Origin: a virus
Taxonomy: Duplodnaviria; Heunggongvirae; Uroviricota; Caudoviricetes
Direction: 5' to 3' (one strand)
Virus record (IMG/VR): IMGVR_UViG_2513237219_000005
Span: 1-42,471 of that record
Length of the DNA: 42,471 nt
The translations under genes were made by a program, and so were the position numbers. Positions within the stretch are counted from its first letter, which is position 1. Every line of letters starts with the position of its first letter. Below the pieces are notes generated by a model. That model saw nothing but the letters and a program-made list of their open reading frames with translations, made no database searches and was not told the DNA's origin. Positions 27,406-30,802 of the stretch are shown one piece after another.

Positions 27406-27744
27406 TCACAATGCTAATTTAGTTTCATGCCAGCCACGCGTAACCCAGCATTTCGAATCACCGTCGCACGGACACGACTTAACCGGCAGCGCATCTCCGC
27501 ATTTACCGCAGCGGTTCGCGCTGATTGACTTAATGCGACCACGAACGCGGGCATCGTCCTGGCGGATCAGCATCGCGACGTATTCGCTCATTTCATACGG
27601 CGCTCGCCCCGGGCGGCGTGATGCACAATTGCGCTCCAGCATCTCCAGTTCCTGCGTATCAAGCATGAGCTCAAATTTACGACCACCAGCAGCAGCTTGC
27701 CGGGCTCGCTGGGCGGCTTTGCGTTCAGCGGCAGATTTAGCCAT
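27406..27744 (-). CDS. Hypothetical zinc-ribbon protein
   Basis: Start at MAKSAAERK overlaps the upstream stop; C-terminal CGKCGDALPVKSCPCDGDSKC. Confidence 0.5.
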   Translation of the reverse strand: MAKSAAERKAAQRARQAAAGGRKFELMLDTQELEMLERNCASRRPGRAPYEMSEYVAMLIRQDDARVRGRIKSISANRCGKCGDALPVKSCPCDGDSKCWVTRGWHETKLAL

Positions 27745-29134
27745 GACCGGACTCCTGAATAGCGGCACGACAGGCTTGTTCAACATGTGTGCGTACCATT
27801 TCCCGGCAATCTTCCGCATTGTCGGCATAAGTTGCCATAATTCCATTTACTGCTGCGCTGATCACAGAATCAGGCACTGTCTGCGGCGCTGGCTTAAGAT
27901 GCTGGCGCGGCTCTCCGTCCTTCGGCTCCGGCCACTGGCGCGCCATGTTCACTTTCAGCTTTTCTTCCATCGCAGCTGTGATTTCACCGTCACTGATACC
28001 GGCGCGCCGCTGGGCGTCCCATAACAGGAACTGCATGTCAGCCCACTCGCTGAGGTCGTCAGGTTCTGCGGCAGCTTCCAGCGCCTCTTTCGACAGGTGT
28101 TTAAGCGGGCCAACGGGACCAACATCGCCGAAAGTCTTATCTGACCATTCAGCGTGTTCACGGCGAACCTGTTCGCGCTTACTTACAGGTTGGCTACCCT
28201 GAAGCATGGCGGCGTGGCAGGCATCCTCAACGTTCTTCACTGCATCTGCGCAGTAGTTATAGCGATTGCATTCCACTAACTTCTGCTTGAGATTTTCAAT
28301 TGCTTGCGCGACATCAGCCTGTATTGGCGGAACGGCTGTCTGCTGCTCTCGAACGTCATTAGTCGCTATCGGTTCTGCTGCCAACTGACTGGCATATTTG
28401 TTAATGGTAACGATAAGCTCTTGCTCGGCCTCATCCAGACAATCACCGATACCTCGTCTGTCGCCGTCGAAATGATCGAAGTCTGTGCGAATTCTGGCGA
28501 CTTTACGGATTGCTGATAACACCTCATCAGGAATCACCGGAGAGTTGCCACCCTGAACAGTAGGCATATCCGGACCTTTGCGAATCGCCCTGGCAAGATC
28601 GATGGGGTCATCGTACAACCAGTCACCTGTTTGCGGATGATTGGCTTCTGCCAATTGTGCAGCCCACTCCAGGCCGTCTTTGTGTCCTTGCAGATAGTCC
28701 AGCGGTAACTCATCACTATTACTTACAGGTTCGGCCTGAAGCATGGCGGCGCGATAGGCGTTCCAGCCGACAGCTTTTCCGTGTTCAAACGCGCTGTCAA
28801 AGTCATCATCCATTTCCATCGCAGCGGGCACAGATACCGGCGCTGGAGGGACGGTGTAGAGCGGCATTACCTCAATATTGAAGATATCCCCCTCGCTTGG
28901 ACACGCCTCTGCGCTACCGTAAACCCAAGGGTGAACGACTCCGTTACGCTTGTTGATTAATCTGTGCGCCCACGCCACAGGCTCCGCTTCGAGCGATGCC
29001 AGCGCGATACGCGCATTATTAATCAGGAGGCTATCAGCAGGAGATAAAACAACATGAGCGTTTCCCTCCGCATCAATTTCAGAATTCGTAATTTTTCTGA
29101 ACAGCTTTGCCAGTTCTTTGGTAATAGTGCTCAT
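27737..29134 (-). CDS. Large nin-region accessory protein, C-terminal region resembling the DUF550-type dATP/dGTP pyrophosphohydrolase-like domain
   Basis: 465 aa; the C-terminal 100 aa (REHAEWSDKTFG...EWADMQFLLWDAQRRAG) recalled as DUF550-like. Tentative. Confidence 0.5.
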   Translation of the reverse strand: MSTITKELAKLFRKITNSEIDAEGNAHVVLSPADSLLINNARIALASLEAEPVAWAHRLINKRNGVVHPWVYGSAEACPSEGDIFNIEVMPLYTVPPAPVSVPAAMEMDDDFDSAFEHGKAVGWNAYRAAMLQAEPVSNSDELPLDYLQGHKDGLEWAAQLAEANHPQTGDWLYDDPIDLARAIRKGPDMPTVQGGNSPVIPDEVLSAIRKVARIRTDFDHFDGDRRGIGDCLDEAEQELIVTINKYASQLAAEPIATNDVREQQTAVPPIQADVAQAIENLKQKLVECNRYNYCADAVKNVEDACHAAMLQGSQPVSKREQVRREHAEWSDKTFGDVGPVGPLKHLSKEALEAAAEPDDLSEWADMQFLLWDAQRRAGISDGEITAAMEEKLKVNMARQWPEPKDGEPRQHLKPAPQTVPDSVISAAVNGIMATYADNAEDCREMVRTHVEQACRAAIQESGHG

Positions 29135-29137
29135 GGG

Positions 29138-29572
29138 TTAGTCCTCACCTTTCTGTTGCACTACCGGAACCGATAAATCGACGCACCAGGAGATAACGCC
29201 GAATTGATCATCGTTCTGCGCTTCACCCCAAACGTAATATTTTGATCCTGGCCGACCCATTGCCGGGTCAAATACTTCTATGCCGCGTTCTGCCGTTAAC
29301 GACATCAGAATCTGATGCAGGCCGCCTTTGATGTTCAGTGACGGAACGGTCAGGAAGTAAATAAACCCGTAAAGCAATTCGGCCTTGCGCTGGCTTCCGT
29401 AAAAATACGGGATTTTGTAATAATCCAGCGCGTCGTCGAGCCAGTCTGTTTTGTCGTGGAATTTCTGATGCCAGCGTTCCACTACCTCATCGACAGGTTG
29501 ACCGGCAACCATTGCAACGCAGGTAGCCATGCAGGTGTTAAATGTTGGCTGCATTTGATGTTGAAGCATCAC
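29138..29572 (-). CDS. Putative papain-fold (C39-like) cysteine peptidase
   Basis: N-terminal QPTFNTCMATCVAMVAG resembles the Gln/Cys catalytic motif of C39-type peptidases, with a later His (GGLHQILM). Tentative. Confidence 0.45.
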   Translation of the reverse strand: MMLQHQMQPTFNTCMATCVAMVAGQPVDEVVERWHQKFHDKTDWLDDALDYYKIPYFYGSQRKAELLYGFIYFLTVPSLNIKGGLHQILMSLTAERGIEVFDPAMGRPGSKYYVWGEAQNDDQFGVISWCVDLSVPVVQQKGED

Positions 29573-30036
29573 TCCCCCTTGATGCCAGCGGCGCTAAGCT
29601 TGGTATTCACATCACCTTCAAAAATAGGCAGTACACCAATTGCAGCGGCCCAGTTTTTAGCTAACTCAGGGTCAGATGTCTCGTCGGTGTAGTCTGATGC
29701 CCGCCACCCAATCAGTCGTTTCTGACCAGGAATGTCAGAGTTTCGCTTCTCCGTTGCTTGCTCTAGAGCATTAAGAAGTGTACGTATTTCATGCTGCTGA
29801 GTAGAGATGCTTGAGTCTTTGGCTTCCAGCTCATCCAGCAGCGCCAGCACGGTGGCGGGGTTGGCTGCGGCGATAAATGCAGCATCACGCGCTTCGTTTT
29901 CACTGAATACCATGGCTATTTGCTCATGGTTCACGCCGTCAGTGGAGTAAATCTCATCGTCGAACTCAACAGCCCACCGGCCTTTCGTCGCCTTCTCCGC
30001 TGCTTCCCGTAATCCACGTTTGTCGATGTTGCTCAT
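29569..30036 (-). CDS. Ead/Ea22-like protein
   Basis: Motif AANPATVLALLDELEA is characteristic of the family as recalled. Confidence 0.5.
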   Translation of the reverse strand: MSNIDKRGLREAAEKATKGRWAVEFDDEIYSTDGVNHEQIAMVFSENEARDAAFIAAANPATVLALLDELEAKDSSISTQQHEIRTLLNALEQATEKRNSDIPGQKRLIGWRASDYTDETSDPELAKNWAAAIGVLPIFEGDVNTKLSAAGIKGE

Positions 30037-30512
30037 TGGGCGGCCTCCTGAATAACAGCACCTTTGGATTCAATGCGCTTATGGCGCTCACGAAACCACT
30101 GGTGAAGATCCATCAGCTCTTTGTCGAGTGGCGCGTATTCGCGGTCAAAATAGGCCTGAGCGTCTTTCTCGTCCTCGTTGGGTAGCTCGCCGGGACCAAG
30201 CAGGGTGTTAAAAATCCAGGCCATCCCGTTCTTGGCGTCGCCGGTGGTGCGCCAGTCGATAACAGCCGCTTGCATGACAAGCAGGTTCTTACCGAACATC
30301 CGATCAAGCTCTTTGAAGCGATTGCGGATGTACTCATTCTCGTCTTTCAGCTCGGTGTTCTGCTTATCTGCGTCAGCCAACACATCAGCGCGAGCACGCT
30401 GCACATCCAGCTGCGTCGCCAGTTCGCGCACCAGCGCGGCAGACTCAGCGCAATGCAGCTCTTTCGCCAACGCATGCCCGGCAGCTACGAGTTCTTTGGT
30501 TTTGTTGGTCAT
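30033..30512 (-). CDS. Hypothetical protein
   Basis: 159-aa ORF translationally coupled to its neighbours. Confidence 0.5.
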   Translation of the reverse strand: MTNKTKELVAAGHALAKELHCAESAALVRELATQLDVQRARADVLADADKQNTELKDENEYIRNRFKELDRMFGKNLLVMQAAVIDWRTTGDAKNGMAWIFNTLLGPGELPNEDEKDAQAYFDREYAPLDKELMDLHQWFRERHKRIESKGAVIQEAAQ

Positions 30513-30802
30513 GCCGCGTTCTCCTGATGAATGATTTCCAGATCCAGCTTTTGAGCCAGAGCGTGTTCCGCTTTTGCGCCTGCTGATTTCTGCCAGCCGG
30601 ACAGCAGGAAAATGCCGTCAGCGCAGCGGAGCATAGCGAGACAAATATCCATGTACTCTGGCTGGCTCAGGCCATCGGTAAGCGTCGCAGGGTTTAACAC
30701 CACATGGCCTTCCGACGACAGGCGCATAGCCTCAAAATGGAACGCAGGGCGGTTAAATTTCGGGATGCCGGTCATTGGCCCAGCAATGTAAATTTTCATC
30801 AA
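30509..30802 (-). CDS. DUF4406-like protein (nucleoside deoxyribosyltransferase-like fold)
   Basis: N-terminus MMKIYIAGPMTG matches the DUF4406 start pattern as recalled. Confidence 0.5.
   Translation of the reverse strand: MMKIYIAGPMTGIPKFNRPAFHFEAMRLSSEGHVVLNPATLTDGLSQPEYMDICLAMLRCADGIFLLSGWQKSAGAKAEHALAQKLDLEIIHQENAA

Follow-up and report, generated by a model that had tools for sequence, protein, structure and literature searches.

A six-gene block between dnaB and ninB of a lambda-like prophage as a probable slot for independent accessory genes

Mosaic accessory genes behind the replication module are a known phenomenon of lambdoid phages, and in lambda itself the ren gene lies between P and ninB. 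The subject here is the corresponding region of IMG/VR virus record IMGVR_UViG_2513237219_000005, a stretch of DNA of 42,471 nucleotides (nt) that is called the window throughout, in which six minus-strand open reading frames (ORFs), g1 to g6, occupy positions 27406-30802 between the genes for a DnaB-type helicase and for the recombination mediator NinB. We take this position to be the slot that in lambda is filled by ren and then by tR2. Like that slot, the block lies between the second replication gene and ninB and has a terminator ahead of the nin genes, but it spans ~3.4 kb and six genes, whereas lambda has a single ren of 96 amino acids (aa); no sequence relationship to ren was seen, none having been tested for. 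An earlier, unaided inspection of the sequence (the original prediction) had also placed the block between the replication genes and NinB, and profile matches bear this out, with a PF04492 O-like protein and DnaB upstream and a PF05772 NinB downstream; its statement that lambda holds nothing but small nin ORFs here was slightly off, given the presence of ren. The block is probably a collection of independent accessory genes in the ren-position slot of a lambda-like early-right operon. All components fall in a known family or superfamily, and the block is best described as an ordinary hypervariable accessory slot of lambdoid prophages, not to be reported as a new system. Modestly new are the recognition of PHROG 4049 as C39-like together with its breadth among phages, the shuffling of modules at linker repeats, and the occurrence of DUF550 and DUF4406 outside a Z-genome context.

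Several of the encoded proteins have described relatives against which they can be compared. Enzymes of the nucleoside 2-deoxyribosyltransferase (NDT)/DNPH1 (Rcl)/DmtZ superfamily use a Tyr/Asp(Asn)/Glu triad as their catalytic set (PMC12884076); g1 resembles them in matching PHROG 355 and in carrying the candidate residues Y4, D51, and E78 in triad order at approximately the same spacing, but it is shorter than the characterized NDT and DNPH1 enzymes, at only 96 aa. The DUF550 protein of phage SH-Ab 15497 hydrolyses dATP and dGTP, activity in this family is known only there and for MazZ of cyanophage S-2L, and the DUF550 proteins of Z-genome phages form a monophyletic group of their own (PMC12884076). 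The C-terminus of g5 is a strong member of the same Pfam family (PF04447) with conserved acidic motifs, but in g5 the domain forms the last module of an Ea-type protein of 465 aa, after three unrelated N-terminal modules, and no PurZ, DatZ, or DpoZ-type genes were found among the early-region and large late-region ORFs that were scanned. C39 peptidases such as those of ComA, LahT, and PCAT1 are N-terminal domains of ATP-binding cassette (ABC) exporters; g4 keeps their conserved Gln, Cys, His, and Asp, but it is a free protein of 143 aa and its family is encoded in phage early and replication regions. No ABC transporter was found among the window ORFs scanned, and a relaxed scan of all six frames of the window for a double-glycine leader motif returned 0 candidates. 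The characterized ea22 gene belongs to the exo-xis region on the early-left side, and Ea22 is reported to have a pro-lysogenic role (PMC7093339, PMC10834534). With lambda Ea22 and the P22 Ead and EaA proteins g3 shares the Ead/Ea22 N-terminal domain, and g2, g3, and g5 fall into PHROG families together with modular proteins of the Ea type, the exact g5 protein being named 'Eaa prophage protein' by one source, but g3 lies in the early-right operon behind dnaB, and the pro-lysogenic role of Ea22 cannot be assumed for it.

All six ORFs listed in the original prediction were recovered at the same coordinates, and because homologues of them occur in many genomes they are judged to be real genes and not chance ORFs:

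30509..30802, minus strand: g1, DUF4406 protein, 97 aa from TTG at 30802 or 96 aa from ATG at 30799
30033..30512, minus strand: g2, Ea-type modular protein, 159 aa (ORF and PHROG matches)
29569..30036, minus strand: g3, Ead/Ea22-like protein, 155 aa (PF13935)
29138..29572, minus strand: g4, predicted C39-like cysteine peptidase, from GTG at 29572, or 143 aa from ATG at 29569 (profile and alignment evidence)
27737..29134, minus strand: g5, 'Eaa'-type multi-module protein, 465 aa (module boundaries from BLAST)
27406..27744, minus strand: g6, Cys-rich protein, 112 aa (phrog_536; a longer 146-aa ORF begins at 27846)

The genes had been described as linked throughout by 4-nt overlaps, and the junctions, taken straight from the DNA sequence, uphold the tight coupling but not the uniform overlap. 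ATGA provides a 4-nt overlap at each of the g1/g2 and g2/g3 junctions. At the DnaB/g1 junction (TTGATG) the overlap is 4 nt only with the TTG start at 30802 and 1 nt with the ATG at 30799, which is the g1 start chosen by the Prokaryotic Genome Annotation Pipeline (PGAP) in relatives, and at the g3/g4 junction (GTGATG) it is likewise 4 nt with GTG 29572 and 1 nt with ATG 29569. A 3-nt spacer (TAA-CCC-ATG) separates g4 from g5 without overlap, and g5 and g6 overlap by 8 nt (ATGGCTAA) when g6 starts at 27744 (M35). Overlaps of 4 nt are thus found at two to three of the five internal junctions; strictly counted they occur at two, and the count rises to four of six, DnaB/g1 included, once TTG and GTG are allowed as rare start codons. 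A Shine-Dalgarno-like AGGAG or GGAG precedes every start from g1 to g6.

In related prophages the block behaves as a hot spot of recombination: its ends stay fixed and its interior is exchanged, which is not the pattern of genes inherited as a set. Of 5426 complete Escherichia coli genomes, 1090 contain pieces of the 3.6-kb block, but only two cover at least 80% of it. The two nearest prophages, in E. coli TOK-001 and ES6, are >99% identical at both block ends, and g3 is replaced between them, together with g4 in TOK-001 and part of the g5 N-terminus in ES6. A set of close relatives was defined as the 12 viral contigs whose g1 is at least 93% identical; in this set g1 abuts dnaB in 11, a g2-type gene stands next to g1 in all 12 (mostly intact, in a few cases truncated or replaced), and g6 lies ahead of ninB in 11, while DUF550 is present in six, g3 in two, and g4 in one. 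The interior of these loci is filled by unrelated cassettes of 85 to 332 aa, mostly without a Pfam family, and g3 is replaced by other variants.

These counts bear directly on the proposal, made in the original prediction, that the genes act together as an anti-defence or nucleotide-pool unit, which we find unsupported. A single co-adapted system, in which the nucleotide enzymes and the peptidase would jointly counter nucleotide-based defence or remodel the nucleotide pool, is very unlikely because only g1, g2, and g6 stay constant while the middle cassettes swap. Such a system would be in keeping with the anatomy of the block, in which six genes, presumably co-transcribed and translationally coupled, bring together two nucleotide-metabolism domains and one protease, and with its position, which would confine expression to lytic growth and so fit an anti-defence role; MazG-like and C39-like genes also lie close together in a Kuttervirus and in a Serratia prophage. 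However, tight packing and ATGA overlaps are a generic trait of phage operons and here reach up to O/DnaB, and with the exception of g2, which is labelled 'DpdH' (see below), the block proteins have no match among the PADLOC defence models. DUF550 lies within 8 kb in 3 of 68 more distant DUF4406 loci, and phmmer found none of the other five block genes near 56 g4 homologues of less than 65% identity; the genes most often found beside these homologues are ninB, directly downstream, and, ~2 kb upstream, an O-like replication gene. The genes also change sides: in several distant DUF4406 loci the replication gene, where in range, is encoded on the other strand, so that g1 falls on the early-left side, and one Serratia g4 homologue lies in the early-left arm beside the integrase. 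In another Serratia prophage (L003) the g4 homologue stands behind a DNA methylase, and a separate 169-aa DUF550 protein is encoded two genes later.

Some points weigh against reading the block as independent accessory genes. Co-occurrence was detected with single-sequence phmmer, from which very divergent DUF550 or DUF4406 neighbours could escape. A weak neighbourhood of protease and NTP pyrophosphatase recurs in three unrelated contexts, namely the window, the Serratia prophage L003, and Kuttervirus SeF6a, and gives weak hints of a looser functional link between these two activities. Furthermore, both the ribbon-helix-helix character of g6 and the Tyr/Asp/Glu triad of g1 are inferred. As an accessory slot, the block has fixed ends, with the DUF4406 and Ea-type proteins beside dnaB and, next to the terminator, the small Cys-rich protein, a putative DNA-binding protein; interior cassettes, even modules within one gene, are exchanged through recombination at conserved linkers of short length. 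The products g1 to g6 most likely act independently.

The largest gene of the block, g5, allows this exchange to be followed within one reading frame. The original prediction had read its C-terminus as a DUF550-type domain, and PF04447 is indeed found at residues 324-417 (27884..28165, minus strand; E 1.3e-42, 144.3 bits vs a cutoff of 23, 94 of 97 profile positions). This family, formerly DUF550, is now named dATP/dGTP pyrophosphohydrolase. The acidic metal-binding motif E350-x2-E353 ... E363-x2-D366 is intact, and the C-terminus aligns to S-2L MazZ (7ODY) at E 0.007, the acidic motifs matching EEIGE and EVAD; the domain would act as a Mg-dependent deoxynucleoside triphosphate (dNTP) pyrophosphohydrolase, converting (d)NTP to (d)NMP and pyrophosphate. 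Pfam searches at E <= 10 with the two parts of g5 outside DUF550 gave only noise. BLAST against 120 homologues resolved g5 into modules 1-143, 144-~205, ~205-303, and 304-465, with sharp breakpoints of the high-scoring segment pairs at ~143, 205, and 304, and nature offers several other layouts: 1-143 joined to 304-465 (286 aa), 1-205 joined to DUF551 (268 aa, with 99% identity in the region in common), 1-318 lacking DUF550, and proteins with both DUF551 and DUF550. A linker of the form A-x-(R/H)-A-A-(M/I)-(L)-Q followed by (E/Q)-P-V recurs at residues 41-53, 126-137, 305-317, and 454-465. In the DNA it appears as an 18-nt repeat in four copies and as a 25-nt pair, 88% identical and 537 nt apart (repeats D1 and D2), at 28198-28222 and 28735-28759, which encodes A-x-R/H-A-A-M-L-Q. 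Between the two direct linker repeats lies the following segment:

28205..28741, minus strand: 179-codon segment of g5 (residues 132-310), bounded by both direct linker repeats

Removing these 179 codons in silico leaves a protein of 286 aa that is identical at 286 of 286 positions to a natural protein (P0056) and at 283 to 285 of 286 to three others (P0058, P0059, and P0060). Since this deletion recreates a protein found in nature, recombination at the linker repeat is judged to relate the long and short forms of g5, and g5 shows to the exact base how proteins of the Ea type acquire and shed modules at such short conserved linkers.

A mosaic protein of this kind could be mistaken for debris of a decaying prophage, with the 465-aa ORF a fused pseudogene. 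RefSeq/PGAP does label the region as 'incomplete' pseudogene fragments in E. coli TOK-001 and ES6 (two of them in TOK-001), but the ORF is intact in both, encoding 465 aa in TOK-001 (L001 4438-5835) and 457 aa in ES6 (L002 4438-5811). The same protein is found identically in E. coli P12b and at 99.8% identity in Enterobacter kobei, and Enterobacter, Cronobacter, and Citrobacter carry full-length homologues that are 65-96% identical. Together with the intact catalytic motifs, this makes decay extremely improbable. The pseudogene calls look like an annotation artefact of the mosaic architecture, because the protein matches shorter reference families only partially.

The DUF4406 call for g1 also stands, with a full-length match to PF14359 (E 4e-34, 117.2 bits vs a cutoff of 22) and a match to phrog_355, annotated as 'nucleoside 2-deoxyribosyltransferase', at E 3e-43. 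Across 36 homologues D51 and E78 are invariant and Y4 is nearly so (at least 90%). The distance from D to E is 27 residues vs 26 in DmtZ. The protein is assigned to the nucleoside 2-deoxyribosyltransferase/DNPH1-like superfamily, with Y4, D51, and E78 as candidate catalytic residues. Searches of the PDB by sequence, with g1 and with the g1 profile, returned no relative, and a literature search on DUF4406 found no functional study. The protein would act on a glycosidic bond, as an N-glycosidase or transferase-type enzyme for (deoxy)nucleotides or nucleosides.

With g5 predicted to release deoxynucleoside monophosphates and g1 to act on their glycosidic bond, the two could form a two-step pair that takes dNTP to dNMP and then to base plus deoxyribose-5-phosphate, or that exchanges the base; if this were so, purine deoxynucleotides would be sanitized or re-routed during phage replication. 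PurZ0 phages provide a precedent, since in them a dNTP pyrophosphatase (DutZ or DUF5664) goes with the NDT-family enzyme DmtZ, sometimes as a fusion (PMC12884076). The activity of the SH-Ab 15497 enzyme on dATP and dGTP, the candidate catalytic residues kept in both proteins, and the place of both genes directly behind the replication genes point the same way, and g1 matches part of the 241-position phrog_12019 'MazG-like pyrophosphatase', which hints at possible DUF4406-MazG fusions. The pair is unlikely all the same: DUF550 lies within 8 kb in 9 of 80 DUF4406 loci, six of these nine being near-identical contexts, and the window ORFs scanned hold none of the Z-genome genes named above. Encoded directly behind the replication genes and outside any Z-genome context, the DUF550 and DUF4406 proteins are candidate enzymes for sanitizing or re-routing the nucleotide pool of ordinary temperate phages.

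The fourth gene, g4, encodes the protein that had been described as carrying a C39-like Gln/Cys motif at a length of 144 aa, a description that proved sound. By itself g4 has no Pfam match at E <= 0.1 and no NCBIfam or PDB sequence match; a hit to the NCBIfam model of RhaT was rejected as spurious (16.7 bits vs a 523-bit cut-off). PDB searches with both g4 profiles gave nothing usable, the near miss being a weak match of PfhB2 to the His/Asp motif at E 0.35. A word-indexed search retrieved only 27 close relatives, and the structure model built on them was of no use (predicted local distance difference test, pLDDT, 56), whereas an exhaustive profile search retrieved 712 representative clusters at E <= 1e-3. 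In an alignment of 117 sequences, 24-84% identical to the query, the sole invariant columns are Q7, C13, H85, D101, and P102, of which the candidate catalytic positions lie at 29549-29551 (Q7), 29531-29533 (C13), 29315-29317 (H85), and 29267-29269 (D101). Thirty of the 117 relatives match PF03412 (Peptidase_C39; best E 2.4e-6) and three match peptidase C58, and the predicted structure (pLDDT 95.7) shows an alpha+beta fold of the papain type, in which the Cys nucleophile lies at a helix N-terminus and the His and Asp on adjacent beta-strands. As g4 is below the Pfam gathering threshold of PF03412, membership holds at the level of the superfamily, by transitive and structural evidence. On this evidence g4 is predicted to be a stand-alone cytoplasmic C39-like (clan CA) cysteine peptidase with an intact catalytic set and, by prediction, activity. 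It would cleave some cytoplasmic protein or peptide, probably after a pair of small residues, as an endopeptidase of the double-glycine (C39) type.

Homologues of g4 form PHROG 4049, which has no Pfam family, and in deposited phages nearly all are annotated as 'hypothetical'. They also occur in virulent Ackermannviridae, in Seuratvirus/Nonagvirus, and in Vibrio and Pseudomonas phages. In Salmonella phage SeF6a (Kuttervirus) the phrog_4049 gene (L167 2905-3435) stands between the genes for both topoisomerase II subunits, with a MazG-like pyrophosphatase gene one gene upstream, and in Seurat-like phages an HslV-family peptidase is encoded two genes downstream of the g4 homologue; such neighbourhoods may be recurrent. 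A literature search on phage C39 peptidases, and on C39 in connection with anti-defence, found no functional study of this family. That the family serves as a Gly-Gly-directed counter-defence protease, for instance as a deconjugase against bacterial ubiquitin-like defence systems, is a speculative idea and a quite unlikely one. What can be said with confidence is that PHROG 4049 is assignable to the C39-like cysteine peptidases, with its tetrad intact across many phage lineages, and the family is a concrete target for screens of anti-defence or host takeover.

The Ea-type proteins g2 and g3 share PHROG families. PHROGs 18739 and 250, which g2 matches at E 4e-58 and E 3e-29, also cover the N-terminus of g3, and g2 and g5 have in common a start motif MxxxTKEL, an end motif A[AV]IQE, and the DNA repeats D3 and D7. 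No Pfam family was found for g2, a search at E <= 10 giving only noise. The Ead/Ea22 call for g3 is sustained by PF13935 at residues 2-83 (E 1e-18, 68.6 bits vs a cutoff of 27), and residues 62-153 match phrog_19867, giving an N-terminal Ead/Ea22 domain followed by a variable C-terminal domain. PDB sequence searches with g2 and g3 returned nothing usable, as did NCBIfam searches with all six proteins. The proteins g2 and g3 and the N-terminal modules of g5 would serve as Ea22-like scaffold or oligomerization modules. Residues 47-146 of g2 match the PADLOC 'DpdH' model PDLC02890 (127 positions) at E 1e-40. According to the literature, DpdH carries ATPase domains, and DpdH/I are BrxC-like. The identification of g2 as DpdH was rejected, as a 159-aa protein in a prophage operon is set against a BrxC-like ATPase of the dpdA-K island and NCBIfam gave no match; either the model is mislabelled or a small phage-like protein accompanies some dpd islands.

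The last gene had been called a zinc-ribbon protein, and g6 is Cys-rich as expected, with a C-terminal cluster CxxC-x8-CxC-x5-C (27448-27510) whose cysteines are all kept in 14 homologues, most of them >90% identical. Its match to phrog_536, a 'transcriptional regulator' family, reaches E 9e-51 and begins at residue 35 of the 146-aa ORF. This longer ORF, which would overlap g5 by 110 nt, was rejected as the real gene, all 14 homologues and the PHROG 536 profile starting at M35, so that translation almost certainly starts at M35 (27744) and yields 112 aa. Neither Pfam nor the PDB yielded a match for g6, and Pfam searches at E <= 10 with the whole protein and with its N-terminal half gave only noise. 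The N-terminal half appears ribbon-helix-helix-like, and g6 would bind DNA as a regulator. Taken over the whole block, profile searches with each protein upheld the DUF4406, Ead/Ea22, and DUF550 calls and did not place the proteins in unrelated, well-characterized families.

The block makes up the distal stretch of the early-right operon, which comprises and is bounded by the following features:

34294-34986, plus strand: divergent cI-like repressor with S24 and helix-turn-helix domains
34193..34221, minus strand: PR-like sigma-70 promoter TTGACA-17-CATAAT, with 11 of 12 consensus matches, heading the early-right operon
32193..33083, minus strand: replication protein O-like gene (PF04492, E 1.5e-32)
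30799..32196, minus strand: DnaB-type replicative helicase, directly upstream of g1 (PF03796, E 1e-63; PF00772, E 1e-31)
27354..27378, minus strand: intrinsic terminator AAGCCTCTTCGGAGGCTT and T run (hairpin 27361-27378), closing the block ~195 nt upstream of ninB
26713..27165, minus strand: NinB/Orf recombination mediator, the downstream boundary (PF05772, E 1e-48)

Genes follow the promoter-like site in the order cro, cII, O, and DnaB, then g1 to g6 without a gap. The block is not a separate operon because the coupling is already present upstream of g1, where O and DnaB also overlap by 4 nt (ATGA). No minus-strand promoter-like site was found inside the block, save a weak 9/12 match at 27409-27381 that overlaps the stop end of g6, and the AAGCCTCTTCGGAGGCTT site after g6 is the sole intrinsic-terminator-like site with a T run on the minus strand of the block; it would be the positional equivalent of lambda tR2. 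From this structure g1 to g6 would be transcribed from PR together with the replication genes in lytic growth and would be silent in the lysogen. An anti-defence or host-takeover role of individual genes is plausible; by position, their expression would be lytic early-right only.

The entire window represents a complete temperate phage, with an integrase (41278-42471), the cI-like repressor, lysis genes, and one tRNA-Asn, and it joins a lambdoid early region with myovirus-type late genes for baseplate, sheath, capsid, and portal. Positions 1-24000 encode Baseplate_J, DUF3383 sheath-like, and SLT-domain tape-measure-like proteins, next to the lambdoid early region. Citrobacter phage Omnitron is the nearest deposited phage, yet it covers 56% of the block. 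The tRNA-Asn (GTT; 25195-25269, minus strand) has the Q-side region on one side and the lysis genes on the other, in the same place as in E. coli TOK-001. Accessory or anti-restriction-type genes are also found outside the block, in the early-left operon, which carries a D12-class N6-adenine DNA methyltransferase (E 2e-57; 39895-40800, plus strand), an RNase T/ExoX-like exonuclease (E 5e-20; 37587-38327, plus strand), an AAA protein, and DUF4060. The early-left region further contains a 451-aa ORF (36099-37454, plus strand) with 16.7 near-perfect tandem repeats of 60 nt (20 aa) at 36217-37217; the repeat unit, LPDNLTVGG(W/S)LDL(R/E)GTSITA, is leucine-rich-repeat-like, Pfam gives only fragmentary repeat matches, and the local GC content is 0.65 vs ~0.53 elsewhere.

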